This document shows, piece by piece, positions 5,916 to 41,856 of a stretch of DNA of 45,693 nucleotides. Position numbers and translations under genes: made by a program. Origin of the DNA: Chiloscyllium plagiosum (lineage: Eukaryota); contig NC_057751.1 in NCBI RefSeq assembly GCF_004010195.1, positions 11,296,955 through 11,342,647 on the forward strand, read 5' to 3'. Under the pieces are notes generated by a model. It had not been told where the DNA came from, ran no database searches, and saw nothing but the letters and a program-made list of their open reading frames with translations. Within the stretch, counting starts at the first letter, position 1. Each line of letters opens with the position of its first letter.

Positions 5916-6614
5916 CAGAGAAATCATCCAATTCTGAGAGCTCAATCAGCAAGTCAGTTAGCCATGGTCCAATGGACTATTGGAACAGGCTCCAGCTGCT
6001 GAATGTATTCCTGTCCCTGGATTGCACTCAAGTCTTTTATTCCAGCTTCTGTTGAGCACTTTCCTGGTAATTCGACCAGCAGAGTCCCACTCTACGATTG
6101 AGAGTTCAATATGAAAGCTGTCCGTTTTCTCCCGAGCTGAACTTCTCTTTCACTGTCATTCTCTTTCAGACTTGGTGAATGTCTCCACGCAGATCTACTG
6201 GGAGTCACAGCTGAGCAACAATCTCAGTGCCCAGTGACCATTCATCACTCACCTCTTTAACAAAACCCCAAAGGGTTTCAATATACATATCCAGTGAGGA
6301 ATTCTGGAAAAACTGAGAAAGTGATCGGACTGTGGAACTTACTATCATATGGTCCAGACAAAAATACAATTTCAGAGGGTGTTAAGGTATATACATGATG
6401 AAGAAAGAAATAAGAACTTGGAAGCATTGTAACAGGTCAATTAGCCCATCAAGATAGATTCACCATTCAATGAAATACAACTTCTTGTATCTATATCCTG
6501 TGTGTATATTGATAACTTCTTCAATAGCTTAGAATAACAAAAGTATATAAAATCAGCTTAATTTTGTAACTACATTCCCCAGTGATGGTCACTCCAACCA
6601 GCAACAATCAGTTC

Positions 6615-7145
6615 AAGATCAGTACAGCATGTGAACAGACACTTCGGTCCAACCCATCCATGCAGACCAGATATCCCAACCCAATCTAGACCCACCTGCC
6701 AGCACCCGGCCCATATCCCTCCAAACCCTTCCTATTCATATACCCATCCAGATGCCTTTTAAATGTTGCAATTGTACCAGCCTCCACCACCTTACTCTAG
6801 CAGCTCTTTCCATACACGTAGCTCCCTGTGCATGAAACGCTGCCCTTAGGCCTCTTTTATATCTATTCCCCTCTCACCCGAAACCTATGCCCCTAGTTCT
6901 GGATTCCCGCACCCCAGGGAAGAGACTTCATGTATTTATCCTATCCATGCCCCTCATGATTTTTCAAACCTCTATAAGTTCACCCCTCAGCCTCTGATGC
7001 TCCAGGGAAAACTGACCCCACCTATTCAGCCTCTCCCTTTCACTCAAATGTTCCAACCCTGGCAACATCTTTGTAAATCTTTTCTGAACCCTTTCAAGTT
7101 TCACAACATCTTTCCTGTAGGAGGGAGACCAGAACTGAACATTGT
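6615..7145 (-). mobile_element. Relatively well-preserved CR1 (HER1-like) 3' end
   Basis: The reverse complement contains AGGCTGAGGGGTGAACTTATAGAGGTTTGAAAAATCATGAGGGGCATGGATAGG and matches 28165-28322. Confidence 0.85.
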
Positions 7146-9017
7146 CACAATGTGGGACTTGGCAGGGTCAGGACGAGAGCTACAGCACAGAGAGCCCCTC
7201 CCCCCACCCAGAGACAGCCAGTCAGTGTGATGTTCACATTGAGACAACTGGTAAAGGGAACAGGGGAGGGGTTGGAAGATGGGACACTGTGTCTCTCCCA
7301 ACAGACAGGGCAGTGGGAAGCAGTCTGCTCTCCAGAGAAACAGTTGGGTTCATCACCAAAAGGAGTCATTTTCAGGGGACTGGCACTTTGTGGACAGGTC
7401 TTTGAAAGGGCCAGCATGGATCAGATAGACAGAATGGCCTCCTGCTGTGAATAAATGTCTGGGAGAAGACATCAAATTGCCAGAGTTTACCTGAAAGGAA
7501 GATCCTGACAGAGCCCAGCTGATTTGCAGGGAGATATGAAAGGAGATGGGCACACAGAGACAGAGGGGTCGGATGAGTGGAAGCCGCAGAGCACAGAGAG
7601 TCCTGTTGCATTTTTGGCACAGTAATCATCCCGTGCACTGGTGCTTTCTGACCGCCTGGCCCAGCTTCCTTTTATTTGGAATTCAATAGCATTTCCGAGT
7701 GCAAAAGCAGCTCTCTTGTTCTGTTTGTTACCAAGGAGGCTTCATCCCCTCCGGAAGGAGAGAGCAAATTGTCTAACGTTGCCAAGATGACAATGTGCTT
7801 TGCCCTGTGACCAGTCACTGCAGATTAAGGGCCTGAGGATTTAATCCACTCCGAACTGCAATAACAAATTTCAATTAAGCGAGGCTTTTGGCAGTTGCTG
7901 TGTTTGCTCAGCAGCCACTTCACACTCTGGCCAATGCACCATTTTCTGTCACTATCTGCTGGTTTACAAACCACTGGCCTCCCTCTCCATTGGTCTTTTG
8001 TTTTTGTCTTTGCTTTTTGTTGTAGAATTTCCCGGAGTGAACACGGTGGGTTGTGATTCCCAAGTCACTGGGAAACCCTGTGGATTCTGCCCGAAGTCTC
8101 TGGATCTGGCTGTTGCCATGGGTCCGACACCTGCAATCCCTGAATTGCAGAAAGGAAGATGTTCAAACCTGAAACTGCTCACCAAAGTGCGAGGGAGTGA
8201 GGTCAATTCTCCGGGTTTTTGAGACAAGTTAAAATAGCCAGCACACTTGTTTCTTTGTCTGCTTATTCTGTCAAGTTCTGTGCAAGTCCAGAAGCAGGTT
8301 AAGCCTTAATTTGATTCAAACAAGTTATCTCTCTCAATGAGTACAGGAACACCGAGGACTTCACAGAGACAGTGAACAGAACAGGTTTGAGTGGCTGAAT
8401 AGCCTATTCCTGTCCCCACATTCCTTCTCCTGCATTGAGGTGCTTTCTCAGTGAAGGCTGCATTGGAGCGCCTCCTCCATTCAGAGAATGATCAGCCAGA
8501 ATTCCTGTTCCTGGTCGCTGTCATATCATCTCCACAGGAGAGTGGGTACAACCAGTTAGCAGGTGGCAAGGGAAATAGCTGTGATGACCACAGTGTTGAG
8601 CAGCTCCCTCCACACCCCCTCCCCGCTCCCTGTCTCTGAACAGGAAGCCAGCAGAAGCCCATCAGAAAACAGGAGACACGTCTGAAACAAATAACTTCCA
8701 AAACAAAACCCATGGCCTTCCATGTGTAATCTCTCACTGAAGCTAATGCCAAGTCTGGTAATGCACCAGCCAGACCTGACCCCAACCCCAATGGATATTC
8801 TGGAGATGGCCAAGACGCTAACATTTATGTTTTTACAAAAAGGTATGTTTACGGCAATGTTCCTGATATGATTCGATTTGTGTTCTACTTCGCTTTAATC
8901 AAAACACACTTTATTCTTACGACACAGTTAAAATACAACACAAGGATGAATTGGCATAACTTTAGCCTATTGAAACACTTAACAAGATAATGTATTGTTT
9001 AACCATTAATCTGCTTG

Positions 9018-9152
9018 AAAAACAAAAAATGCTGGAAACCACAGCAGGACAATAGTCCGATGAAGAGTCGTGTCGACTCGAAATATTAGCTTGCTCTCCC
9101 TCCACAGATGCTGACGGGCTCGCTGTGAGCTCCCAGCAATTTTTGTCTGCAG
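9018..9152 (+). mobile_element. Penelope-like terminal fragment with partial inverted end
   Basis: ACAAAAAATGCTGG...CCAGCAATTTTTGT inverted pair around CCGATGAAGAGTC-GTGTC-GACTCGAAA and CTCCACAGATGCTG. Confidence 0.6.
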
Positions 9153-9180
9153 TAATTTCCTCCTCAACTGTTCTAATATG

Positions 9181-12100
9181 GACAGTATCCCAAATACACA
9201 CATTCCATAGCAAAGGCAGTATCCCAGATACACACAAACTCCATAGCAAAGGCAGTATCGCACATATACACACACTCCATAGCAAAGGCAGTATCCCAGA
9301 TACACACACTCCGTAACAAAGGCAGTATCCCATATACACACACTCCAGAGCAAAGGCAATATCCCACATGCACACACTCCTAAACAAAGGCAGTATACCA
9401 TATACACACACTCCGTAGCAAAGGCAGTATCCCAGATACACACACTCCATAGCAAAGGCAGTATCCCATATACACACACTCCGTAACAAAGGCAGTATCC
9501 ATCCCATATACACACACTCCGTAACAAAGGCAGTATCCCAGATACACACACTCCATAACAAAGGCAATATCCCACATGCACACACTCCTAAACAAAGGCA
9601 GTATACCATATACACACACTCCGTAGCAAAGGCAGTATCCCATATACACACACTCCGTAACAAAGTCAGTAACCAAGATACACACACTCCGTAGCAAAGG
9701 CAGTATCCCATATACACACACTCCATAGCAAAGGCAGTATCCAAGATAACACACTCCGTAGCAAAGGCAGTATCCCATATACACACACTCCATAACAAAG
9801 GCAATATCCCACATGCACACACTCCTAAACAAAGGCAGTATACCATATACACACACTCCGTAGCAAAGGCAGTATCCCATATACACACACTCCATAACAA
9901 AGTCAGTATCCAAGATACACACACTCCGTAGCAAAGGCAGTATCCCATATACACACACTCCAAAACAAAGGCAGTATCCCACATACACACACACTCCATA
10001 GCAAAGTCAGGATCCAACATACACACATTCCATAACAAAGGCAGTATCCCAGATACATACACTCCATAGCAAAGGCAATATCCTATATACACACTCTATA
10101 TCAAAGGCAGTATCCCATATACACACACTCCGTAACAAAGTCAGTATCCAATATACACACAGTGCATAGCAAAGGCAGGATCGCACAGACAGACACTCCA
10201 TAGCAAAGGCAGTAACTAAGATACACACACTCCATATCAATTGCAGTATCCCATATACACACACTCCATAACAAAAGCAGTATCCCATATACACACTCTA
10301 TATCAAAGGCAGTGTCCCATATACACACACTCCAAAACAAAGACAGTATCCCACATACACACACACTCCATAGCAAAGGCAGTATCCCATAAACACACAC
10401 TCCATAACAAAGACAGTATCCCACATACACACACACTCCATAACAAAGGCAGTATCCCAGATACATACACTCCATATTTGCAGTATCCCATATACACACA
10501 CTCCATAACAAAAGCAGTATCCCATATACACACTCTATATCAAAGGCAGTGTCCCATATACACACACTCCAAAACAAAGGCAGTATCCCACATACACACA
10601 CACTCCATAGCAAAGTCAGGATCCAACATACACACATTCCATAACAAAGGCAGTATCCCAGATACATACACTCCATAGCAAAGGCAATATCCTATATACA
10701 CACTCTATATCAAAGGCAGTATCCCATATACACACACTCCTTGGCAAAGGCAGTATCGCAGATACACCCACTCCATAATTAATGCAGTATCCCATATACA
10801 CACATCCTCAATAGCAAAGGGAGTATCCCATATACACACACTCCATAGCAAAGGCAATTTCGCAGATACACACACTCCATAACTAAGGCAGTATCCCACA
10901 TACACACATACTCTATAGCAAAGGCAGTATCCTATACACACACACTCCTTATCAAAGGCACACTCCATAGCAAAGTCAGTATTGCTGATACACACACTCC
11001 ATAACTAAGGCAGTACCCCACATACACACATACTCTATAGCAAAGGCAGTATCCTATACACTCACACTCCTTATCAAAGGCAGTATCTCATATACACACA
11101 TATCATATTGAAGACAGTATCCCAGATACACACATTCCACAGCAAAGGCAGTATCCCATATACACACACTCCACAGCAAAGGCAGTATCCCATATACACA
11201 TACTCCATAGCAAAGGCAGTATCCCAGATACACACACTCCATAACAAAGGCAGTATCCCATATACACACACTCCATAACAAAGGCAGTATCCCATATACA
11301 CATACACCATAGCAAAGGCAGTATCCTCGATACACGCATTCGATAACAAATGCAGTATCCCATTTACATGCACACTCCATAGCAAAGGCAGTATCCCATA
11401 TACACACACAACATATCAAAGACAGATCCCAGATACACACACTCCATAGCAAAGGCAGTGTCCTATATACACTCTCTATGTCAAAGGCAGTATCGCAGAT
11501 ACACACACTCCATAACAAAGGCAGTATCACACATATACACACACTCCATAGCAAAGGCAGTGTCCTATATACACACTCGGTATCAAAGGCAGTATCCCAT
11601 CTACACATATTCCATATCGAAGGCAGTATCCCAGATACACACACTCCATAACAAAGGCAGTATCCCATATACACATACTCCATAGCAAAGGCAGTATCCA
11701 GATACACACACTCCACAGCAAAGGCAGTATCCCAGATACACACACACTATAACAAAGGCAGTTCCAAGATACACACACTCCATAACAAAGGCAGTATCCC
11801 ATGTATATACACGATAGCAAAGGCAGTATCCCATATACACATACTCCATAGCAAAGGCAGTATCCCAGATACACGCAATGATAACAAAGGCAGTATCCCA
11901 TATACACACACTCCATAGCAAAGGCCGTTTCCAAGATATACACACTCCATAGCAAAGGCAGTATCCCATATACATGCATTCGATAACAAATGCAGTATCC
12001 CAGATACATGCACACACCACAGCAAAAGCAGTATCCCATATACACATACTCCAGAACAAAGGCAGTATCCCACATACACACACACTCCATAGCAAAGGCA

Positions 12101-15100
12101 GTGTCCGATATACACACTCTCCATAACAAAGGCAGTATCCCACATACACACACACTCCTTAGCAAAGGCAGTATCCCAGATACACACACTCCACAGTAAA
12201 GGCAGTGTCCTATATACACACACTCCATAACAAAGGCAGTGTCCTATATACATACTCTATGTCAAAGGCAGTATCCCATATACACACACTCCATAGCAAA
12301 GGCAGTATCCCATATACACACACTCCAGAACAAAGGCAGTTTCCCACATACACACACACTCCATAGCAAAGGCAGTGTCCTATATACACACTCTATGTCA
12401 AAGGCAGTATCCCACAAACACACACACTCCTTAGCAAAGGCAGTATCCCAGATACACACACTCCATAGCAAAGGCAGTGTCCTATATACACACTCTATGT
12501 CAAAGGCAGTATCCCATATACACACACTCCATAACAAAGGCAGTATCACACATATACACACACTCCATAGCAAAGGCAGTCTCCAAGATATACACACTCC
12601 ATAGCAAAGGCAGTATCCCAGATACACACACACCATAACAAAGGCAGTCTCCCATATACACACTCTATAGCAACGGCAGTATCCCAGATACACACACACA
12701 CACCAGAGCAAGGCAGTATCACATAAACACACTCCATAGTAAAGGCAGTGTCCCATATACACACACTCCATAGCACAGGCAGTATCCCATATACACACTC
12801 TATATCAAAGGCAGTATCCCGTATACACACACTCCATAGCAAAGGCATTATCCCACATACACACACTGCACAGCAAAGGCGGTGTCCCATATACACACAC
12901 TCCATAGCAAAGGCAGTATCCCATATACAGACACTCCATATCAAAGTAGGTATCCCATATACACACACTCTGTAGCAACGGCAGTATCCCAGATACACAC
13001 ACTCCATAGTAAAGGCAGTATCCCAGATTCACACACTCTATATCAAAGGCAGTATCCAATATACACACACTCCAAAGCAAAGGCAGTATTGCATATACAC
13101 ACACTCCATAACAAAGGCAGAATCCCATATACACACACTCCAATGCAAAGGCAGTATCCAAGATATGCAGACTCCATAACAAAGGCAGTATCACATATAC
13201 ACACACTCCATAGCAATGGCAGTATCCAAGATACACACACTCCATAGCAAAGGCAGTATCCCATAAATACACTCCATAGCAAAGGCAGTGTCCCATATAC
13301 ACACTCCATATCAAAGTAGGTATCCCATATACACACACTCCGTAGCAAAAGCAGTATCCCATATACACACACTGCATAGAAAAGGCAGTATCCCATATAC
13401 ACACAACCCATAGCAAAGACAGTATCCTAGATACACACACTCCATAGCAAAAGCAGTGTCCTATATACACATTCTATATCAAAGGCAGTATCCCATATAC
13501 ACACGCTCCAAAGCAAAGGCAGTATTGCAGATACACACACTCCATAAGAAAGGCAGTATCCCATATACACACAGTCCATAGCAAAGATGGTATCCCAGAT
13601 ACACAAACTCCATAGCAAGGCAGTATCCCATGGACACACACTCCATAGCAAAGGCAACATCCCATATACACGCCCGATATCAAAGGCAGTATCCAATATA
13701 CACACACTCCATAGCAAAGGCAGTATCCCAAATACACACACTCCATAGCAAAGGCAGTATCCCACATACACACACGCCATAGCAAAGGCAGTATCCCATA
13801 TACACACACTCCATAACAAAGGCAGTATCCCACATACACACACTCCATAGCAAAGGCAGTATCACACATACACACACTGCATAGAAAAGGCAGTATCCCA
13901 TATACACACACCCCATATCAAAGTAGGTATCCCATATTCACACACTCCGTAGCAAAAGCAGTATCCCATATACACACTCTATATCAAAGGCAGTATCCCA
14001 CATACACACACTCCATAACAAAGGCAGTATCCCACATACACACACACTCCATAGCAAAGGCAGTATCCTATATACACACTCTATATCAAAGGCAGTATCC
14101 CATTTACACATATTCCATAGCAAATTCAGTATCCCATATACACACTCTATATCAAAGGCAGTATCCCATATACACACTCTATATCAAAGACTGTATCCCA
14201 TATACACACACTCTATATCAAAGGCAGTATCCCATATACACACCAAAGCAAAGGCAGTATCGCAGATACACATACTCCATAACAAAGGCAGTATCCCATA
14301 TACACGCTATCGATAACAAAGGCAGTATCCAATATACACACACTCCATAGCAAAGGCAGTATCCAAGATATACAGACTCCATAGCAAAGGCATATCCCAC
14401 ATACACACACTCCATAGCAACGGCAGTTTCCAAGATACACACACTCCATAACAAAGTAGGTATTCCCTATACACACACTCCATAGCAAAGGTAGTATCCC
14501 ATGTACACACACTCCATTAGCAAAGGCAGAGTCCCATATACACACACTCCATAGGAAAAGCAGTGTCCCATATACACACTCTATATCAAAGGCAGTATCC
14601 CATATACACATACTCCAAAGCAAAGGCAGTATCCCATATACACACACTCCATAGCAAAGGCAGTATCCAAGATATACAGACTCCATAGCAAAGGCATATC
14701 CCACATACACACACTCCATAGCAACGGCAGTTTCCAAGATACACACACTCCATAACAAAGTAGGTATTCCCTATACACACACTCCATAGCAAAGGTAGTA
14801 TCCCATATACACACTCTATATCAAAGGCAGTATCCCATATACACATACTCCAAAGCAAAGGCAGTATCCCATATACACACACTCCATAGTAAAGGCAGTA
14901 TCCCAGATACACACACTCCATAGCAAAGGCAGTATCCCAGATACACGCACACTCCATAGCAAAGCCAGTATCCCGTATATGCACTCTATATCAATGGCAG
15001 TGTCCCATATACACACACTCCATAACAAAGGTAGTATCCCATATACACATACTCCATAGCAAAGGCAGTATCCCAAATACACACATTCCATAGCACTCTA

Positions 15101-17080
15101 TATCAATGGCAGTATCCCATATGCACACATTCCATAGCAATGGCAGTATCCCATGTGCACACACTCCATAGTAAAGGCATATCCCACATACACACTCTCC
15201 ATAGCAAAGGCAGTATCAAAGGTACACGTACTCCATAACAAAGTAGGTATTCCATATATACACACTCCATAGCAAAAGCAGTATCCCATATACACACACT
15301 CCATATCAAAGGTAGTATCCCATATACAAACACTCCATAGCAAAGGCAGTATCCCATGTGCACACACTCCATAACAAAGGCATATCCCACATACACAGAC
15401 ACTCCATAGCAAAAGCAGTATCCCATATACTCAAATTCCATAAGGCAGTATCCCATATACAAACACTCCATATCAAAGGCAGTATCCCATATACAAACAC
15501 TCCATATCAAAGGCAGTATCCCATGTGCACACACTCCATAACAAAGCCAGTATCCAAGATACGCACTCTATATCAAAGGCAGTATCCCACATACACACAT
15601 TCCATAGCAAAGGCAGTATCCCAGATACACATACTCCATATCAAAGGCAGTATTCCACGTGCACACACTCCATAGCAAAGGCAGTATCCCAGATACACAC
15701 ATACTCCATATCAAAGGCTGTATCCCATATACACACACTCCATAACAAAGCCAGTATCCAAGATACGCACTCTATATCAAAGGCAATATCCCATATACAC
15801 ACATTCCATAGCAAAGGCACTATCCAAGATACACATACTCCATAGCAAAGGCAGTATCCCACATGCTCATACTCCATAGAAAAGGCAGTATCCCAAATAC
15901 ACACACTCCCTAGCAAAGGCAGTAACCCAGATACATATACTCCATAACAAAGGTAGTATCCCATATACACATACTCCATAGCAAAGGCAGTATCCCAGAT
16001 ACACACACTCCATAGCAAAGGCAATATCCCATATACACACACTCCATAACAAAGGTAGTGTCCCAGATACACACACTCCATAGCAAAGACAGTATCCCAT
16101 AAACAACACTCCATAGCAAGGCAGTATCCCATATACACACACTCCATAGCAAAGGCAATATCCCATATACACACACTCCATAACAAAGGTAGTGTCCCAG
16201 ATACACACACTCCATAGCAAAGACAGTATCCCATAAACAACACTCCATAGCAAGGCAGTATCCCATATACACACACTCCATAGCAAAGGCAGTATCCCAA
16301 ATACACACATTCCATAGCACTCTATATCAATGGCAGTATCCCATATGCACACATTCCATAGCAATGGCAGTATCCCAGATACACACACTCCATAGTAAAG
16401 GCATATCCCACATACACACCCTCCATAGCAAAGGCAGTATCAAAGATACACGTACTCCATAACAAAGTAGGTATTCCATAAACACACACTCCATAGCAAA
16501 AGCAGTATCCCATATACACACACTCCATGGCAAAGGCAGTATCCCATATGCACACACACCCCATAACAAAGGCATATCCCACATACACAGACACTCCATA
16601 GCAAAAGCAGTATCCCATATACTCACATTCCATAGCAAAGGCAGTATCCCATATACACACTCCATATCAAAGTAGGTATTCCATATACACACACTCCACA
16701 GCAAAGCAGTATCCCATATACACACACTCCATAACAAAGGCATATCCCACATACACAGACACTCCATAGCAAAGGCTGTATTCAAGATACACACACTCAA
16801 TAGCAAAGGCAATATCCCAGATATACACACTCCATAGCAAAGGCTGTATCCCATATCCACACACTCCATAACAAAGGTAGTATCCCAGATACACAAACTC
16901 CATAACAAAGGCAGTATCCCATATACACACATTCCATAAGAAAGGTAGTGTCCCAGATACACACACTCCTTTGCAAAGCCAGTATCCCATATCCACACAC
17001 TCCATAACAAAGGTAGTATCCCAGATACACACACTCCTTAGCAAAGGCAGTATCCCATATACACACACTCCACAGCAAAA
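9181..17080. repeat. Satellite array, 34-bp consensus GGCAGTATCCCATATACACACACTCCATAGCAAA, roughly 230 diverged units
   Basis: Period read directly (GGCAGTATCC at 9287 and 9321). Unit length varies, mostly 32/34/36 bp, through CA copy number. Confidence 0.98.
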
Positions 17081-24673: not shown

Positions 24674-25158
24674 TGGAATAACTCCATACAAGCTGGTGCC
24701 CCATCACCAAGTCACCCTTCATCTCCACAGGTGGAAAGCCCTTGGAACTGCTCCTGCTTGTTCAGAGTGAACTAGAACACTCTTGTTTTTTTTTTCTTTT
24801 TTTTTTGTAGAAACCTCGACTCTGATCCAGTTCCCTCAGAGTCAGCTCTCTGAGTGAACAGAACCTCTGACACTCGGGTTTTTTTTTAAAACCCCCACAC
24901 GACCGCCTAACTGCGGTAGTGCTTATTTTTTCCCCAGCACCCATGTTGTTGTGTGCGTGCAGGTGTGAGACACAGTGAAAGACACAACGTGCACGAATCT
25001 TTCTTCAAATTTCCACCACCAGGAAGAAAGGAAACACCCAAGTGGCCAGTAACACTCTTGTTTCTATCTGTCAGCCAGGGCTCCCTGACTGGGTGAAACA
25101 AATAGTTCTGATCAGGGAACTCAGATTCCATACCATCCACCTGGCTGACCCATTTCCA
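24674..25158 (-). mobile_element. Solo-LTR-like element (TG...CA) hosting a Tx1 insertion
   Basis: The reverse complement GAATCTGAGTTCCCTGAT...CAGGGAGCCCTGGCTGACAGATAGAAAC...GGGTGACTTGGTGA...GGAGTTATTCCA aligns with 33917-34004 plus 35484-35927. Confidence 0.7.
24789..25050 (-). mobile_element. 5'-truncated Tx1-clade retrotransposon 3' UTR, transduced LTR segment and poly(A)
   Basis: 24888-25050 matches the 3' UTR at 34204-34365. Perfect 13-bp TSD AACACTCTTGTTT at 24776-24788 and 25051-25063. Two poly(T) tracts on the plus strand. Confidence 0.85.
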
Positions 25159-26214
25159 ATCATTTCAGTAGAATTTCAGAAATGGTCTTTCAGCAATGGA
25201 TCAAAAAGACAAGTGATTGGTACATCTCTGAATCCCATACATTGCAGTATTTAGTCTTGACATGGAAAAAGCCAGTGTTATTTAGAAGCCCAAAGCTGAA
25301 CGCAGATCATAACCTTCTTCATCTTTGAGCCCAAATGCCTCAATGTGAGCAGAAAAATCACACAATTAAAGACGGGCCACTCAGCCGCTCCTTCTTATTC
25401 CTGTCAAGAGAAGAGCCCTGAACTCGTCATTCTTTCCTGTCAGCTCAAAGCCCTCGGTTGGAGTTGGACAATGATAAAAGAGGCTGCCCCTAGAAAACCA
25501 ACAGGAATGGGGTCCCTCTTGGTGAATGAGCAGCTGCAACGCTATTTGAGGCATGCAGTTTGTTTGTGACTCAGTCACGCTGAGGCCAGCCTGACAAAAT
25601 GCAGCAAAAACTCAACAGAAAAGCAGTCTCAAAGATGCGGCCTTAGAAAGATTATAAACTTTTTTTCATAACCAGTGCTATTTTTGGAGTAGTGCACAAC
25701 TTCAGGGAACTGCACATATTGATCCACAAAGTATCAGAGAATTTAGACACTATTTATTATGTCAATAGTTTGAACTCTTGCCTGTTCGTTGATCTTGTGC
25801 CTGCATTTTAATCATCTGGCAATTAAACCCTTTTACAGAGAACACTCAATTTGCTCGTAAAGTGAACGCACATTCTCACGACTGCAGACTCAAGGCAGGA
25901 ATGATTAAAAACTGACTGCTTTCTTCACAGCATTTGAGCTAGAGCTTGGGTTGAAAATAGAGAATCTGTAAACCATACCCCAGTGTTTTATCCTGATTAT
26001 CTTGGGACCAAAGAATAAAGACATGGTTTACCCCTCGAGAAATGAGGTCTTCCCTCACAATGGTCATTACATTCGGGGAAACTCTCTGTCAGTAGAAATA
26101 ATCAACTTCCTTGGAATGAGTACACTGATTCTGTCACATGGGAATATTGCCCGCAGGTATTTCACTGTCAGTTGGTCTACCACAGTTATAACTGCTGTCT
26201 ATCAGGATTGTAAT

Positions 26215-27200
26215 AGAGTTACAACTAGTCTCTGCTGGTCTCGTCACAGAGCTACACTGGTCTCTGCTGGATAGTCACAGAGCTATAACTGGTCTCTTCT
26301 GGTATAGTGACAGAGCTACACTGTATCTGCTGGTATAGTCACAGAGCTCCAACTGGTCTCTGCTGGTATAGTGACGGAGCTGCAACTAGTCTCTGTTGGA
26401 TCATCACAGAGCTACAACTGGTCTCTGCTGAATAGTCACAGACCAAAACTGGTCTCTGCTGGATAGTCACAGAGATACAACTGGTCTCAGCTGGTATAGT
26501 GACAGAGCTACAATTGGCCTCTGCTGGTATAGCGACAGAGCTACCCTGGTCTCTGCTGATATAGTCACAGAACCCCAACTAGTCTCTGCTGGTATAGTCA
26601 CAGAACTCTCATAGTATCATCACAGAATTACAACTGGTCTCTGCTGGTATAGTCACAGAGCTACACTGGTCTCTGCTGGAATGTCACAGAACTACAACTG
26701 GTCTCTGCTGGAATGTCACAGAGCTACAGCTGGTCTCTGCTGGATAGTTACAGAGATACAACTGGTCTCAGCTAGTATAGTGACAGAGCTACAATTGGCC
26801 TCTGCTGGTATAGCGACAGAGCTACACTGGTGTCTGGTGATATAGTCACAGAACTCCAACTGGTCTCTGCTGGTATAGTCACAGAGCTACACTGGTCTCT
26901 GCTAGATAGTCACAGAGCTACACTGATCTCTGCTGGATAGTCATAGAGCTACACTGGTCTCTTGTGGTATAGTCACAGAACTCAAATTAGTCTCTCATAG
27001 TATCATCACAGCTACACTGGTCTTTGCTGGATAGTCACAGAGGTACAACTGGTCTCTGCTGGTATAGTCACAGAGCTACACTGGTCTCTGCTGGATAGCC
27101 GCAGAGCTACACTGGTCTCTGCTGGATAGTCAGAGATACAACTGGTCTCTGCTGGTATAGTGACAGAGATATAACTGTTGAATACTCATAGAACTACAAA
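26215..27200. repeat. Minisatellite, 31-33 bp unit CTAC(A)ACTGGTCTCTGCTGG(T)ATAGTCACAGAG, ~30 copies
   Basis: Directly visible tandem periodicity with degenerate edges. Confidence 0.97.
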
Positions 27201-28455: not shown

Positions 28456-28782
28456 AATCAGTGCGGAAGCAGGCCATTCAGCGCATCAAGTCTACACTAA
28501 CCCTCTGGGCAGTATCCTCCCCCATCCCTCCAACTCCAGACCCATCCCATCCCTGTAACCCTGCATTCCCCATGGCTCACCTACCTCACCTGCACATCCC
28601 AGGACACTATGGGGCAATTTAGCCTGGCCACTCCACCCTCACCTACACATCTGTGGACTGTGGGAGGAAACCCACACAGGCACAGGGAGAACGTGCAAAT
28701 TCTACATAGACATTCACCTGAGGGTGAGATTGAACCCAGGTCCCTGGTGCTGTGAGGCAGCAGTGCTAACCACTGAGCCACC
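28456..28782 (-). mobile_element. HE1-like V-SINE (tRNA head, V-domain, CR1-derived tail)
   Basis: On the minus strand: A-box TGGCTCAGTGG, B-box GGTTCAATCTC and V-core TTTGCACGTTCTCCCTGTG..GGGTTTCCTCCCACAGTCCA. Confidence 0.85.
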
Positions 28783-28999
28783 TGATGTCTTCACTAGATT
28801 CGTTGCCACTGGAAATCTTCTCAGCAACTGGTACTGTGAGAGGCAGGAAGCCCACACAAAGTCTTCAGCACAACATTGGCTCAGGCTTGACAAACAGTGG
28901 CATCGCACTTTCCACCATGGTGGGTGATGTCGGTTAAACCCCTTCAGGTACTATCTGCCTTATTCAAACCCTTCCCCCTCCCACCCCAGAGCTTGCTGA

Positions 29000-32110: not shown

Positions 32111-33531
32111 TCGAGGTTGGGAATGGGGTAGAGGTGGTGAAGGAAGGAGCTGGTGGGTGAAACCCCAAAAGGGGTCACTGGGTGAGCTTTTGAAAATGTG
32201 GGCTCTGAGGCACTGACGGTCACTTCAGGGATCTGACTGAGTACTAACAACAACCATGTCCTGCACCAACACAGAGGGCTCCCACTGACACAGGATCGCA
32301 CATGTTCTCCCAGCTCACTGAGCCCCTCACTCCCTGGTTCTCACTTGGGGGCTGTGACCATTTCCAAAACAGCAGAAACGTTTGGGAGGTGCCACTGGAG
32401 ATAACCACAGGACTTTCTTCAGCTGGTCTGTTCCCTGAGTGAAAGCAGTGGCTAGAACTCAGGAGCTTGTGGAGAGCATTAGACCCGAGTGGAAGGAACC
32501 TCAATACCCAGTTGAGGGCGAGGGGGTTTGGTCAAGTGTGGAGTGTGAAGCATTGCATCAACCCCAGAGTTTGTCCAATCTGCAGAATGCAGCATGAACA
32601 GGTTGCACAGATCTGTGCAACAGGTCTGTGTGATGGTGAGTTATGTGGACCGTTACTTATGGGTGCTTCTCAGTGCTTTGAGCACCTTGCCAGCTCAGCC
32701 TGTGGTTGCATTCAGTAATATGATGCTGGTGGTGATGCAGGAAATAGCAGAGGCGTTGCCACCCTCAGTGTAAGTGGAAAGGGAGAGCTGACCCTCACCT
32801 CAGGGGTAGTGACAGGAGACGTGAGCACAGCATCTCATCGGCAGCTCAGGGAATGTGGCTGAGGCTGGTCAGAGGGAATAGCTGGAGGAGCACATCCCCA
32901 CTGTTGTCACTCCTCCAGGGACAGCTTTCAGTTGCCTGACCCTCTCCCACTGTCCGTTCCTCTTCCTTCATCACACACCTTTAACCGTACCCCTTTGATC
33001 AACATTCTCATCGTCTCCCCTCACCGTCACTCAAACCTTACCGAAACGCTCAGTGGTTGGGCAGGGAGGGAAAGATTGGTCAAAAGCTGTTGAGGAAGAA
33101 AGCAATGAAGAACACTTCCACTCCAGTGGGGAATGCAGTCAGAAACAGGGCAATGTGGGGTGTGCAAGGTGTGGATCCATTTTCCCAATCCCAGCATCGC
33201 CCCCTCCCCACCACCCCCACCTGAAGTAGGCGGCTGGTTTTGTGATGTAGACCATTCCTTGGCACTCTAGGGCACATCCTCCTGCCAGTGTTGAAACCAT
33301 TCAGTATAACTCACTTCTTTGTCAGCTCACTATGGTGGTCCCCATGTGGACATGCAGATGGAGATGCCATGTAAAGCAATTGCCCAACAGTGGTGGGCCA
33401 ACAGTCCAAATGTTGTCCACAATAAGCTCCTGTGTTCAATATGTTCACTGCTGACTCATGCTGCTGTTTGCCACCTTTGTCCCAATGAGGCCATCCTTGG
33501 CACTGTCATATCTTCAAAACGCTTGGGTGAG

Positions 33532-33690
33532 TGAAATAACTGTGGAGAAGCTAGTATCCCATCAACAAGTCACCCTTTAGTTATGTGTGCACATTACCAA
33601 CGCTCTTACCGATCAGCTCCAAGCCAGTTCCTAGTATGGAGAGACTCTCTGAGTGACCTAGGTTAACAGATTCACCTGATCCTTGTTCCA
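33532..33690 (-). mobile_element. Degenerate, internally deleted copy of the solo-LTR-like family, without Tx1
   Basis: The reverse complement starts TGGAACAAGG and ends AAAGGGTGACTTGTTGATGGGATACTAGCTTC..GTTATTTCA. Confidence 0.55.
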
Positions 33691-34018
33691 ATCTCTGCAG
33701 AGAGTAAAATGAATGCACCTGCAGCAGAATTCCCAGGGGATCAGACCAGAAAGGCCTTGGGGGTGAGCATCACAGTGGGCATGGCCCTGTGTTTTGAAGT
33801 ATTTAAGATGGAGTCAGACCAGTCTGTCTCATGTGCTGGTTTTACTGGTTTAGCCTTCTGGAAGGGAACTAAAGAGGGTTCTGACGAGTCACAGTGGATG
33901 TGAAATGTATCACAATTGTAACAAGGTGGACCTTACAGAATCTGAGTTCCCTAATTGAGGCTGTTAATCTGGTCCAATCAGGGAGCCCTGGCTGACAGAT
34001 AAAATGGTAGGTGCGGGG

Positions 34019-34135
34019 GTGTCCTTGGAGAAGGAGCACGCGGTGTCGACCAACACCCTGGAGGTGTTCAGGGAGAGGTGGGGGCCGCGGGGAGTAGAGT
34101 GCATCATTTCTCCCTCCAACTCTATTTTGATTTAG
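34019..34135 (+). pseudogene. Tx1-like ORF2 C-terminal fragment
   Basis: VSLEKEHAVSTNTLEVFRERWGPRGVECIISPSNSILI* by manual translation; resembles the Tx1 ORF2 C-terminus (recalled). Confidence 0.7.
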
Positions 34136-35071
34136 TCCCTACCCTCCCCTTCACTGTTTTTGATCACACAACATTGCCCTTTGATGTGAAGGGCAGTGTT
34201 TGTCACTGGCCACCCGGGTGTTTTCCTATCTTCCTGGTGGTGGAAATTGAATAAAGATTCGTGGACCTTGTGTCTTTCACTGTGTCTCACACCTGTGCAC
34301 ACACACACCATGGGTGCTGGGGATAAAATAAGCACTACCGCACTTAGGTGGTAGTGTGGGGGTTAAATTTTAAAAAAAAAGAATAAAAAATAAATAAATA
34401 AATAAACAAACAGGAAATAAGCACTACCGCACTTAGGTGATAGTGTGGGGGTTAAAAGGAAAAAGAAGAGAAGAACAGGGGTGTTTGAATAAAGATTCGT
34501 GCACTTTGTGTTTTTCACTGTGTCTCACACCTGCACACACACACCATGGGTGCTGGGGATAAAATAAGCACTACCGCACTTAGGTGGTAGTGTGGGGGTT
34601 AAATTTTAAAAAAAAAGAATAAAAAATAAATAAATAAATAAACAAACAGGAAATAAGCACTACCGCACTTAGGTGATAGTGTGGGGGTTAAAAGGAAAAA
34701 GAAGAGAAGAACAGGGGTGTTTGAATAAAGATTCGTGCACTTTGTGTCTTTCACTGTGTCTCACACCTGCACACACACACCATGGGTGCTGGGGATAAAA
34801 TAAGCACTACCGCACTTAGGTGGTAGTGTGGGGGTTAAATAAAAAGAAAAAAAAAAATAAATAAATAAACAGAAGGTTCTTCCTGGTGGTGGAAATTGAA
34901 TAAAAGATTGGTGCACTTTGTGTCTTTCACTGTGTCTCACACCTGCACACACACACCATGGGTGCTGGGGAAAAAATAAGCACTACCGCACTTAGGTGGT
35001 AGTGTGGGGGTTAAAACAAAAAAAAATAAGAAAAAAAAAAGAAGAAGAAAAAAAAAAGAAGAAAACAAAGT

Positions 35072-35206
35072 GACTATGTTCGAGCCCGGGTGTCCTTGGA
35101 GAAGGAGCACGCGGTGTCGACCAACACCCTGGAGTTGTTCAGGGAGAGGTGGGGGCCACGGGGAGTGGAGTGCATCATTTCCTCCTCCAACTCTATTTTG
35201 ATTTAG
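35072..35206 (+). pseudogene. Tx1-like ORF2 C-terminal fragment
   Basis: DYVRARVSLEKEHAVSTNTLELFRERWGPRGVECIISSSNSILI*; the frame is conserved with the 34019 copy. Confidence 0.7.
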
Positions 35207-35570
35207 TCCCTACCCTCCCCTTCAGTGTTTTGATCACACAGCATTGCTCTTCGATGTGAAGGGCACTGCTTGTCACTGGCCACTCGGGTGTTTTCCTATC
35301 TTCCTGGTGGTGGAAATTGATATAAAGACTCGTAGATCTTGCGTCTTTCACTGTGTCTCACACCTGCACACACACAACATGGGAGCTGGGGAAAAAATAA
35401 GCACTACCGCAGTTAGGTAGTAGTGTGGGGGTAAAGAAAAAGAAGTAAAAAAAAGAAAAAACAGGGGTGTCTGAAAAAAAAGAACAGAGATGTCAGACTT
35501 CTTGTTCACTCTGAGAAAGCTGGCTCTGTGGGAGCTGGATCAGTTAATCCTTTTCCACGTGTAAATAAAA

Positions 35571-35873
35571 ATAAATCCCTCGAACTCAGCACCACCATAA
35601 ATCCATCGAATTCAGCACCGCCTTCCTAACCTGCAATCTTCTTCCTGACCTCTCCGCCCCCACCCCACTCCGGCCTATCACCCTCACCTTGACCTCCCTC
35701 CACCTATCGCAATTCCAGCACCCCTCCCCCAAGTCCCTCCTCCCTACCTTTTATCTTAGCCTGCTGGACACACTTTCCTCATTCCTGAAGAAGGGCTTAT
35801 GCCCGAAACGTCGATTCTCCTGCTCCTTGGATGCTGCCTGACCTGCTGCGCTTTTCCAGCAACACATTTTCAG
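35571..35873 (+). mobile_element. Penelope-like 3' fragment inserted in the LTR
   Basis: C-rich tract followed by CTGAAGAAGGGCTTATGCCCGAAACGTCG. Flanked by GTAAATAAA at 35561-35569 and 35875-35883 (9-bp TSD). Confidence 0.75.
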
Positions 35874-35944
35874 GGTAAATAAAGGGTAACCTGGTGACAC
35901 AGTACCAGCCTCTGTGGAGTTTTTAAACAACGTTAACCCCCATG

Positions 35945-36060
35945 TCATAGAATCGATACACTGTAGAAGTAGTCCATTTGACCATTGAGTCCACACTGAC
36001 CCTCTGAAGAGCATCCTACCCAGACCCACCACCTGCCTGCTCCCTGTAACTCTACATTTC
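35945..36060 (-). mobile_element. HE1-like SINE tail fragment
   Basis: GAGTCCACACTGACCCTCTGAAGAGCATCCTACCCAGACCC matches the tails of the other SINE copies. Confidence 0.65.
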
Positions 36061-36534
36061 TGGGAGATATTCTACCTTTGGATTGTTGACCTCTAGAGTT
36101 CCTGCTGGGCCTCTCTGCCACAATGATTCTCTCTTGCTTTATTGATCCAGTGAAAGTTGACACAGTCCACTTCCACGTTTCCTGTGTTTTATTCTCAGCT
36201 CTTTTTCCAACTGGAAGTGTCCTTTTTTGTGAATCAGCAGACAATTTGGCTGCTCTGTCTCCCACACCAATGGTATGTGTTACAGACAAGTCACAAAACA
36301 ATCCATCAATCACCCGCTTCTCTAAAAATACTGAAAAAAAAATCACAGCAACTGATAGTTTAAGAACTTCCTTGCCCATTGAGATCCTTATACGCGTTTA
36401 ATCAAGGTTAGTGAGAGATTGGTCAATGCACTATCAAGCTGAGCAAGCAGAAAATCACATTGGTCCTCATTAAAAAGCTTGATGACATTTGGTAAAAACT
36501 TGCTCTCAGTTGTCAGCATGTCAAGTCCTTTGAG

Positions 36535-36835
36535 AAAATCCCTGCAGTCTGGAAGCAGTCCACATCAACCCTCTGAAGATCATCCTATCCCCATCCCTGA
36601 GACCCTGCCGTTCCCACGGCTAACACCTTGCCTGCACATCCCTGAACACCATGGGGGCAATTTAGCATGGACGATCCACCTAACCTGCACATCTTTGGAT
36701 TGTGGGAGGAAACCAGAGCACCTGGAGGAAACCCACACAGACACGGAGAGAATGCACAAACTCCACACAGACAGTCCTGTGAGGTTGGAATCGAACCCGG
36801 GTCCCTGAGGCAGCAGTGCTAACCACTGAGCCATC
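36535..36835 (-). mobile_element. HE1-like V-SINE
   Basis: A-box TGGCTCAGTGG, canonical B-box GGTTCGATTCC and V-core GTGTGGAGTTTGTGCATTCTC..GGGTTTCCTCCAGGTGCTCTGGTTTCCTCCCACAATCCAAAGATGTGCAGGTTAGG. Confidence 0.9.
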
Positions 36836-37758
36836 CAGCTACCCAGAAAAGAGCTGGTGCTGAAAAGATACAGATCGAACTTTGTGAATCAGCAATATAT
36901 TTGGAGATGACAAAGCTTTTGGCTCACTGTCTGGGATAGTCACTGTCAGTATCATAATGATCTCCAACCTGGAGAAATGGGCCAATGTAAATGGAAACTG
37001 CCACTGCAATGCATTCTTCCAGAACTCTTCATTTTCATACAGGCATGAAATCCATCACTTGAAAGTGAGGTGAAGCCTCATGATGTCTGGTCAGGAGCCA
37101 AGTGGTTGTGGAGAATTACAGCTATAAATACATATATGCTTTCCACAAACCAACCAAAATTAGCTGCTTCCAAGAATGATTCAGCTCAGGGCTTGTCAAA
37201 TCTATAATGGGTTTGAAACATACAGGAGAAGGTTTATCAACTGTGCTCAATACACAGGCTGCCCACAGACTGCCATTTTGCACAGGGCTGGTTTCACATC
37301 CTTTTAATTACCCCGGGAAGGATACAATCTTTCTCACTTTGTCCTACCCCATCTCCTCTCCCGTGTCAGTCAAACAATGGCAATGGAAGGGCAGTCACCA
37401 TCGTGGAGTAGACCCATTGAGAATGGTCAATCCAGCGTACAGCAAGATCCCACTGCAGCAGCAAACAAAAGGTGAACCTCAAGGAATTCTCCGCCCCTTG
37501 CCAAATGATGCCAGCTCAAAGGTAACGTCTGTGAGGCAGAGCAGTCAGGCAGGGCCTCAGGTTAATGTTTTGCCCATCTGGAGACACCTCTGATAGTCCA
37601 ATCCCTGTGGCTCAGACTGATTGAGAGGAGACCGTCGTTTCGATGTGATACATCGCAGACGGGAGGTTCCCAGTGTCCCCCAACCCCCACACCTCAGCAG
37701 CCAGCAGACTTCACAAAGCGTTTGAGGATCATACTCTGGACCTATATTTCTGATGGCG

Positions 37759-38767: not shown

Positions 38768-39088
38768 TCATCGAATCCCTTCAATGTGGAAGCAGGCCAT
38801 TTGGCCCATCAAGCCCACATCAGCCCCCTGAAAAGCATCCCACCTATTCTCAGCCTTCCTATCCTAACCTCACATTTCCCATGGCTAATCCACCTGCAAA
38901 TCCCTGGACACTGTGGGCAACTTTGGACAGCCAATCTACCCTCACCTGCATATCTTTGGACTATGGGAGGAAACTGGAGGAAACCCACTCAGACATGTGG
39001 AGAATGTGCAATCTCCACACACACAGTCACCAAGTCCAGGTCCCTGGCACTGAGGCAGCAGTGCTAACCACTGAGCCACTGTGCTGTC
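38768..39088 (-). mobile_element. HE1-like V-SINE
   Basis: GGCAGCAGTGCTAACCACTGAGCCACTGTG head (reverse) and a body colinear with the other copies. Confidence 0.85.
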
Positions 39089-39374
39089 CTGCAAAGTATT
39101 GAAAATAAGCTATTGACCAGAATCAGAGAGTTGGAGAGTTAGTGTAATATATAAATCAGGTAGGCCAAATCATCATTGATGACGTGACCACCAGAGGTAG
39201 TGGGGGATGGTTAAGCCAGAAGCCGACTGTCAACTCTCATCCTGTGTATGGGTTACACCATGTCCAGTCAGAGGTAATGTTTACACATGGCCTGACCTTC
39301 CCCTGAGTGTTCATCAAACTCAATCCCACACACTAGCAAACAATACTCACTTATGGTGATAACACAAAGACCAG

Positions 39375-39405: not shown

Positions 39406-40188
39406 ACCTGTGTGTTCATCCCGAAGTCCTGGTGAAGATTGGTTCTCAGTCACCACCTGAGAAATCTGCTTATTGTGTTCTCGCTGTGTTTTGGATCTTG
39501 CTGTGCTGGCTGGTGTATTCTCTCTGATTGCTTTCTTCCCACAATGCCTGAGGTACGAAGATGGCCGGCTGCTTGCAGCAGGAACTGGGAACATCCTGAG
39601 AGGAATGAGTTCCAAGGGACTAACGTTTGCCCGCTATACAGTCTGCATGCATTTGGCAGAGGATCACTCAGTGGGGCTTCACTGGGTGAACAGCTGAAAG
39701 AACTGAACAGGAAGAACTGTCAATGTCAGTCCTCATCAAACTGGAGCAGGCCTCTCCATCCCTGATAAGGAAGGGAGCTGGAAACTAACTGAATCCAGTC
39801 AGTCATGAATAATAACGGGGGGTCCTTAAAATGCTTTGTGAAAGAAAAACTGGAATTGGGATTCAACTTTACGATATTTCAACTCCTGCACAGAAACTGA
39901 CAAGTTGCCTCATTTATTCATGTCCCTACCTGACAATCCATATCCTTCTGGTCCTTTCTCCCTCATGTTCCTTTAGGTTCTTTGTATTTCTGTGAAATGC
40001 TAAAATCCTATTCTCCAATTTGTGATCACAAGTTCTACATTCTCAACACCATTTGAGTAAAGACACTTCCTCCTGAACTCCCCCAGTGGCTTTATTACTA
40101 ACCATCTCATGCTCCCAGTCCCTTCACGTGTCAATGACATCTCCATGATTATCCTGTCGACACCACCTCCCTGTAACAATGCAGTGAT

Positions 40189-40265
40189 TGGAGCAAGGTC
40201 CAGGTGGATCTCATTGAGTCCGACATTCCTTATTACGGCTGTTAACATGGGCCAATCAGGGAGTC
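40189..40265 (+). mobile_element. Old 5' fragment of the solo-LTR-like family, without Tx1
   Basis: TGGAGCAAGGTCCAGGTGGATCTC...GGCTGTTAACATGGGCCAATCAGGGAG aligns with 33917-33986. Confidence 0.55.
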
Positions 40266-40520: not shown

Positions 40521-40792
40521 TCAGAGAATCCCGACAGTGGAGAAAGAGACTGATTCAGCCCATTGTGTCTGCACCTTTGGAGGCAGCCACCCAGCTCCTA
40601 TCCCTGTAGCCTGACATTTATCATGACCAATCCACCTGACCTGCTCATCTTTGGATTGTGGGAGCACCTAGAGGGAACCCATGCAGATTCGGAGAGAATA
40701 TACAAACTCCAAACAGTCGCCCAAGGGTGGAATCGAACGTGGGTCCCTGGCACTGTGAGGGAACAGAGCTAACCACTGAGTCACCCTGCCAC
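40521..40792 (-). mobile_element. HE1-like V-SINE (diverged)
   Basis: GGAATCGAAC..GGGTCCCTGGCACTGTGAGG..GCTAACCACTGAG head in reverse; V-core partly deleted. Confidence 0.8.
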
Positions 40793-41856
40793 CCTAAAGG
40801 GTCCAGTACCACATCACAGTGAATAAAAACTGGGCAGGTGAGCCAATATTTGTCCTTCCTCCAACATCATTTGAAGAGATTCTCTGGTTACTGTGACCTT
40901 TTTGCTTGTGGGAGCTTGCTGTTTATAAGTTGAGACCTGCACTTCCCATATTACAACGTTAGCGTATGCAATTGGCTTGTGAGGTGCAAGGTTGCTATGT
41001 AAGTGCAAATCTTTGTCCCTGTCTCTATTGTTGGAATGGGTTTCCAAAGATGCGCCCAGGTATGTTACAGACATCGCCATCTGGAAGATGTACCGTCGGG
41101 GTTCTCCCAACAACTGACTACAGAATGGTATCTGAAGCCTGGCACAACTTGCTGAGCCACCCCTCTTAGCTGAAGGTCAGTATATATGATGAACATACAA
41201 GACTTTGCAAAAAGATTGAGCAAAGTAACATGCAGGAGAGCAACCAGCTAAGCAAACAATTGACAACTTGAACTTTCAAACCTGCCATAAATCGCAAGCT
41301 TTCACATTGAGGCAATAGGCAGGCAGATCTCCAAGACAGATATGGTTTGATATCTCTTGTGTGCTGTCAAATGAAACCAGTTTTGCTCAATTCGAAGGGA
41401 AGGCATGTCAAAGACACTCCTCCATGTAGCTCTTCAACTGACAGCAATTAAACCAGGCAAGTGAGGCTCCCTCAGTCGCCTCAAGTATCTCACATTCTGT
41501 TGAGAATAAAAGGCTGGAATGTGTTCTTTTGGGCTCAGCAAATATAAACAGCCAGCACAAGATTTTCAACAAAAAAAACCCGATCTTCAGCTTGCCTCTA
41601 AATTACTGGCACGAACAGGAAGCTTTCCCTATCTTGGTATCACTCTGACATTTGTACTTTGCCATATGGCGCACACATGTCCAGCTCTTTCCCCCAGCCG
41701 TTCCTCAGCCTCACTCCGTGCTTTGTCACACAGTGTACACTTTGAACGGTCATACTCTCACGTTATAGGCTCGGGGTAACATAACTGATCACCAATGGAT
41801 CGGTGCTCTACCTTTCGTCAAGGTCAATATTCTCCTGTCCCTCCTTTGAGCTGAAG

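Follow-up and report, generated by a model that had tools for sequence, protein, structure and literature searches.

The window analysed here is a stretch of 45,693 nucleotides, to which all positions below refer. Between 34005 and 35495 it holds seven copies of one LINE 3′ terminus, ending at 34363, 34452, 34599, 34688, 34835, 35011 and 35432, which are named U1 to U7 from left to right, with an A-rich tail behind every one of them. The flanks of this array are the two halves of one repeat, about 240 bp long when its inserts are left out. The left part of this host repeat (33901–34004, plus strand) has a TG start, placed approximately, and a CCAAT at 33974, and is cut at 34004 in a TATA-like site; 79 of 102 positions are identical to a copy near 25.1 kb and 75 of 96 to a copy near 40.2 kb. 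On the other side, a right-hand target, AACAGAGATGTCAG (35483), leads into the middle part of the host with its AATAAA (35482–35569, plus strand), which agrees at 68 of 80 positions with an LTR-derived segment at 24.8 kb. At this AATAAA the host is interrupted by a high-copy repeat unrelated to it (35570–35874, plus strand; families D8 and D9), bounded by a 9-bp duplication (35561 and 35875) and presumably Penelope-like, of which an inverted pair lies at 621–805. The 3′ part of the host follows at 35875–35930 (plus strand, end approximate) and agrees at 56 of 74 positions with the distal portion of the copy at 25 kb; it also matches an inverted fragment near 33530–33600.

The features of a solo LTR are found in this repeat in order, that is, the TG start, CCAAT at 33974, TATAAA in most of the sequencing reads, and AATAAA near 35565. 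Two copies in the window end in TTATTCCA and TTATTTCA and other host copies in a ...TTCA-type end, the end being degraded in the copy that carries the array. A duplication matching at four of five positions flanks the 25-kb copy; a search for a 4–6-bp duplication around the array's copy found none. No internal region was seen, and the repeat is called LTR-like here. The same LTR occupies the orthologous place in two organisms, B and C (14 differences in 318 positions and 22 in 420), whose contigs end before the target, at 33972–33973. A left half of the host at about 40170–40265 stops shortly before the target and has no LINE behind it, and an inverted, diverged fragment of the 3′ half lies at about 33530–33650 (minus strand), some 250–370 bp upstream of the array's LTR. 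A joint between 33583 and 34001 on opposite strands is explained by this inverted fragment and was set aside.

The window has a second host copy with a LINE at the same site and in the same direction (24674–25167, minus strand), in which the target (25063–25052) is followed by the LINE (25050–24891) and its tail. Behind it comes a 3′ transduction (24878–24777, minus strand), consisting of 72 host-derived nucleotides (24878–24807), a second A-run and a 12-nt copy of the target (24788–24777) that duplicates the first one perfectly. The 72-nt segment is closer to the right flank of the array (68 of 80) than to the distal part of its own copy, a comparison that covers 20 aligned positions only; the segment was transduced from a donor likewise located at this site of the LTR.

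Other repeats in the window comprise a 215-bp tandem duplication of 98–99% identity at its very start (1–432), a strongly strand-skewed minisatellite of 7.9 kb (9183–17079, period 34, about 233 copies), a second minisatellite (26215–27177, period 32, about 30 copies) with a 281-bp higher-order repeat, and four copies of a SINE-like repeat (36625–36851, 28565–28798, 38887–39096 and 40616–40801; families D13–D17), which we assume to be HE1-like.

Units, spacers and an internal duplication

At the left junction, the host is followed by 12 nt of filler (34005–34016, plus strand) that weakly resemble the LINE's own 3′ tip. Anchored shuffles reached the observed likeness in 576 of 20000 cases (p about 0.03, a comparison chosen post hoc), against 4791 of 5000 for unanchored ones, which is not significant. 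The filler could be the remains of an eighth terminus, the trace of a template jump or a scar left by a deletion. LINE homology proper begins at 34017 with U1 (34017–34363, plus strand, 347 nt), not at 34013, where the earlier note had placed its first unit; the other starts it gave, 34415, 34485, 34877 and 35072, were right to within about 3 nt. U1 opens with the end of a reading frame, an ORF2 remnant in frame up to the stop at 34133–34135, and its 5′ end shares the microhomology GGGTGTC with the target; ORF2 sequence upstream of 34017 is present in 2060 reads. Tail 1 and the target remnant AAACAGG fill 34364–34414 (plus strand).

The next piece (34415–34484, plus strand) is made up of the 38-nt U2, which ends at 34452, tail 2 and the remnant AACAGGGGTGT at 34474. 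U3 (34485–34599) and U4 (34651–34688), both on the plus strand, come before U5, which has 115 nt up to 34835 and, with tail 5 and the remnant AAACAGAAGGT (34867), occupies 34721–34877 (plus strand). U6, of about 134 nt, starts near 34878 and runs to 35011; with tail 6 and the remnant AAAACAAAGTG (35062) it extends to 35071 (plus strand). The start of U7 lies at 35072–35075, and the unit (35072–35432, plus strand, about 360 nt) contains the last 44 residues of ORF2 (35072–35203), a stop and the 3′ UTR. It is followed at 35433–35481 (plus strand) by tail 7, a target copy, AAACAGGGGTGTCTG (35459–35473), and a short A-run. It is plausible that this end piece is either a tail-only insertion or a short 3′ transduction. 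A mini-transduction at 35460 had already been suggested, and the clear transduction at 24.8 kb makes it credible, but a tail-only insertion fits equally well.

U3 and U4 are products of one tandem duplication of 236 bp (34296–34840, plus strand). The stretch 34296–34604 recurs at a period of 236 with one mismatch (34512) in 309 positions, and Tandem Repeats Finder (TRF) reports 2.7 copies of period 236 at 96%. Accordingly, U3 is a chimera, beginning as U5 does and ending in U1's tail, and U4 equals U2 including its tail. That is to say, two of the seven termini exist because of one local duplication, and a 5′ end and a tail of their own are found in five units: U1, U2, U5, U6 and U7. For these five the earlier statement that each unit has a different 5′ truncation and tail holds; it fails for the unit at 34485, the tail of which is that of U1. 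The last 68 nt are identical in U1 and U5, and we infer that the duplication arose by unequal crossover or slippage in this common stretch. A joint between 34246 and 34484 (13 reads) was considered as evidence of a deletion and rejected, variants of the family fitting the start of U3 equally well.

Over the last 115 nt, U1, U5 and U6 differ from one another by 2–4 substitutions (2–4%) and from U7 by 9–14, and the divergence between units of the array reaches 11%. U7 is the most divergent unit, with 21 substitutions in 344 positions against U1, and the tails of these two differ. U1 and U7 start 11–14 nt apart. They differ at six sites at which the reads of the family split 39–55%, as is expected of separate source elements; they also have in common three letters carried by few reads of the family (about 13%, 4% and 3%), which makes their independence less sure. 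The 3′ tip of the LINE forms a hairpin of 10 bp with a 6-nt loop in U1, U5 and U6 (−15.6 kcal/mol; 1 of 1000 shuffles was as low), and in this hairpin (34332–34357 and its equivalents) the array units have a G-U pair where the 25-kb copy has G-C. An Rfam search of 33400–36900 gave no match, and metagenome contigs scanned for the pattern of the LINE 3′ end yielded 0 stretches. The array consists of dead pieces that show no sign of function.

Between the tails and the following units lie short remnants of the target, and those quoted in the earlier note were all found where it had placed them: AAACAGGA at 34408 and again at 34644, AACAGGGGTGT at 34474, 34710 and 35460, AAACAGAAGG at 34867 and AAACAAAGTG at 35063. 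Each spacer was shuffled and scored against the commonest empty-site motif in the reads. Of 20000 shuffles, the observed score was reached by 102 at 34408, 26 at 34474, 22 at 34867, 2213 at 35063, 1 at 35460 and 718 at the right-hand target (35483), so that the combined p of Fisher is 1.3e-9 for the six remnants and 1.5e-6 for the four internal ones. Their likeness to the target, as first claimed, thus goes beyond chance as a set, but the remnant at 35063 taken alone is not significant against the read motif. Scoring against the 25-kb target instead gave weaker individual tests (73–2637 of 5000), in which the remnant at 35063 reached 78 of 5000. Differences among remnants were counted by eye: at 34474 and 35460 the remnants have GGGG against GAGA in the right-hand target, a divergence of 2 in 11 positions, and degradation is further advanced in those at 34867 and 35063.

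Identity of the LINE

The marks of a LINE are all present, namely a fixed 3′ end with an A-rich tail and variable 5′ truncation (seven termini and five 5′ ends in the array) and target-site duplication (the 12 nt at the 25-kb copy). The frame ends that open U7 and U1 encode 44 and 38 residues before the stop. The 44-residue piece found 4 proteins at E values up to 0.001 among 1.84 billion, the best at 5e-10 with 69% identity, and 1 protein in a word-index search, and the matches are ORF2-like C-termini. A Pfam search of the fragment gave no match, and a search of the ESM Atlas returned unnamed clusters only, recognition lying below its threshold. Through stepwise searches by way of the proteins P0002, P0006, P0007 and P0009, proteins of 1304–1306 residues with endonuclease and reverse-transcriptase domains (PF03372 and PF00078) were reached, and the piece aligns directly to residues 1261–1302 of one of them, the 1304-residue APE and reverse-transcriptase protein P0014 (29% identity, pairwise E 2e-5).

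Among these relatives, the endonuclease of the turtle protein P0009 scores 84.8 bits against an L1 chimera that carries the loop of Tx1L (LTx, 2v0r; described in the part of PMC1950540 available to us) and 76.4 bits against wild-type L1. It aligns almost without gaps to the loop of 2v0r, a Tx1L-like hairpin loop of 11 residues; the identity between P0009 and the nearer relative P0006 is itself only about 39%. The element of the array is thus most likely an APE-type LINE and, judged from its relatives' proteins, most likely one of the Tx1 clade. In another record, a protein predicted as CutA1 (P0005) contains about 27 residues that match the end of the LINE's ORF2; an artefact of the gene model or the exonisation of a fragment may account for them.

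Preference for the TATA-like site of the LTR

The segment 33450–34530 was compared at 80% likeness with four data sets, the raw reads X20 and the contig sets X15 (organism A), X5 (organism B) and X14 (organism C), the tail at 34356–34420 being skipped. In each of the four, the sequence that most often follows 34001 is that of the empty site, TAAACAGGAGTGTCAG, with 1424 reads in X20. Of the 15 joints listed (out of 354), 12 lead from host positions 33999–34004 into the LINE. Where letters stand between host and LINE, 10 of the 12 rows listed (out of 455) start at 33994–34004, and 9 of these 10 carry 8–19 target-like nucleotides. At least 16 different entry points into the LINE, from 34112 to 34276, occur at one host site in the reads and contigs of three organisms. 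They stand for insertions that took place independently at this site in other copies of the LTR, and with so many truncation points at one place the LINE family hits this host site repeatedly.

The read depth is about 6360 over the LINE end and about 4270 over the host half (about 1.5:1), and depth arithmetic with an assumed genome size of 3–5 Gb gives about 10,000–16,000 LINE ends and 6,600–11,000 host copies. Empty sites are seen in at least 1867 reads. Since the LINE ends are in excess and many sites are nevertheless empty, either an occupied site holds several units on average or many LINE copies lie elsewhere or in more diverged LTRs. The host flanks the LINE at both of the two loci in the window. 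In the available part of PMC4494074, Kojima counts a Tx1 family as target-specific when more than 20% of its flanks are one repeat. The LINE prefers the TATA-like site of the LTR, a preference that may fall short of strict exclusivity. At the array itself the depth of the unique flank is 0–1 in X20, and no listed read or contig piece spans the array.

History of the array and known systems

The array is read here as the outcome of serial re-insertion at a duplicated target, followed by unequal crossover, at a probability of roughly 0.65. The endonuclease of the Tx1-type LINE, an enzyme of the kind its clade would lead one to expect, may cut a site of 12–14 nt that starts at the TATA-like box of the LTR, and a copy would then be inserted by target-primed reverse transcription, likewise judged from the clade, always in the direction of the LTR. 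Each insertion would duplicate the site, and an intact copy would survive and could be cut again. The A-tail may have a share in restoring the target, as the earlier note proposed; the motif is complete in the duplicated target by itself. In this way five or more 5′-truncated copies could have arrived in succession at this locus, each leaving a tail and a clipped copy of the target, and later an unequal exchange or slippage within the 68-nt terminal stretch common to U1 and U5 would have produced the 236-bp duplication and brought the termini to seven. Such a pattern, with five distinct 5′ truncations, five distinct tails and target remnants in the gaps, is characteristic of repeated insertion at a single target. 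Several observations speak against such a series here: the remnants diverge by more than the 2–4% that separates U1, U5 and U6, the left junction has no copy of the target, U1 and U7 have their rare letters and nearly their 5′ ends in common, and no listed read or contig piece runs through the whole array. The termini could be aligned as the earlier note had advised, yet the order of units by divergence is not decisive, for the outlying U7 suits growth to the left and the pattern of remnants suits growth to the right. Its claim of at least five insertions at the target of a site-specific LINE is supported by five ends, tails and remnants and by the use of the site across the genome; that all of them took place at this very locus is the less secure part.

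A less probable course, the chief rival and put forward only tentatively, is that serial insertion piled up the stack in some other LTR copy, that the whole was transcribed into a single read-through RNA, perhaps from the promoter of this donor LTR, and that the RNA was then copied into the present LTR in a single step. Under it, the filler might be the truncated remainder of a further upstream unit and 35459–35481 the donor's target with a new A-tail. A single event would then account for the tip-like filler without a left target copy, for the extra target and A-run at 35459–35481, and for internal remnants with GGGG beside a local target with GAGA, and the family does transduce LTR sequence, as the 72 nt and second A-run at 24878–24789 indicate. 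On the other hand, none of the 15 joints listed (out of 354) links the LINE 3′ end to 34005, and the filler is significant only if it is anchored. Local decay suffices for the difference between GGGG and GAGA, which amounts to two G-to-A changes, and target remnants at unrelated loci in the reads and contigs are as variable as those in the array. A literature search on read-through priming found nothing relevant. The further idea that stacks are themselves mobile, the LTR promoter transcribing the pile behind its TATA box and the LINE machinery copying multi-unit stacks, is in our judgement rather doubtful. If it were true, the array would be a travelling record of earlier insertions that grows by insertion and unequal crossover, and the movement of stacks as one RNA would give nested arrays a new means of spreading.

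That fewer events were involved, with U1 and U7 going back to one insertion through an old duplication or conversion, or with units joined by template jumps (a process named in the part of PMC4494074 at hand), appears improbable. The three shared rare letters and nearly equal 5′ ends of U1 and U7 fit such a history, as does the tip-like piece joined to U1 without a tail at the left junction, which is how a template jump would look; but the 21 differences in 344 positions include the six common polymorphisms, the tails differ, the 7-nt match of ORF2 and target at 34017 may favour truncation at that point, and template jumps would leave no target remnants at the four internal junctions. It is very improbable indeed that a single insertion gave rise to all units through local duplications and deletions, or that the array is an assembly artefact. 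One local duplication is real, its near-perfect 236-bp copy could be an assembly error, and no spanning read or contig piece is listed; against this stand five tails, five 5′ ends that follow target-like letters, divergence of up to 11%, a mismatch carried by the duplicate itself and the same type of junction at many other loci. The earlier note had named a single-insertion origin of all units as fatal to its reading, and what was found is that only two termini come from local duplication.

The locus also has a wider bearing. It is a clean case of a high-copy Tx1-type LINE aimed at one short site in the promoter of another retroelement. With LINE ends numbering around ten thousand and host sites several thousand, the family offers a good natural data set on the choice of site by a Tx1 endonuclease and on the repeated use of duplicated targets. 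Both steps of the route to tandem repeats by double insertion and then unequal exchange lie within 1.5 kb. No effect on the host is indicated.

A literature search, with most subscription journals and Repbase outside its scope, returned no paper on the LINE family of the array; the principle, that is, Tx1 targeting of LTRs and stacking around a target-site duplication, is already in print for other animals. As far as the part of Kojima 2015 (PMC4494074) available to us goes, two crocodilian Tx1 families, Tx1-8_Crp and Tx1-4_AMi, prefer LTR retrotransposons. They share with the LINE of the array the preference for LTRs and differ in the host animal and the LTR family; as for their site within the LTR, "TATA" occurs 0 times in the main text of that paper. 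It also describes tandem SINEU-3 copies "sandwiching a TSD" in Mariner-N4_AMi and reads them as sequential insertion. Like the array, this SINEU-3/Tx1-Mar case has tandem copies at one site of another transposon, but its target is a DNA transposon and its copies are pairs of SINEs, whereas here five LINE 3′ ends are stacked and a later duplication was added to them.

Tx1L of Xenopus laevis, the clade's type element, inserts into Tx1D, a piggyBac-type DNA transposon, according to the portions of PMC4494074 and PMC1950540 at hand. Its endonuclease loop is like that of the turtle relative P0009, and both Tx1L and the LINE of the array insert into another transposon; the piggyBac-type target of Tx1L is unlike the LTR of the array, and the window is without the LINE's own endonuclease. 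For Drosophila, double insertion followed by unequal exchange is put forward, with R1 as the model and with tail-to-internal LINE dimers besides, in the accessible part of 10.1101/158386. There, as in the array, the target is duplicated in the junction and distinct 5′ truncations mark independent events; R1, however, has rDNA as its target and its array has grown to 0.5–1.3 Mb, in contrast to one expansion step of 236 bp here. In summary, what the present locus adds to these systems is the 236-bp expansion step and the possibility that a stack moves en bloc.
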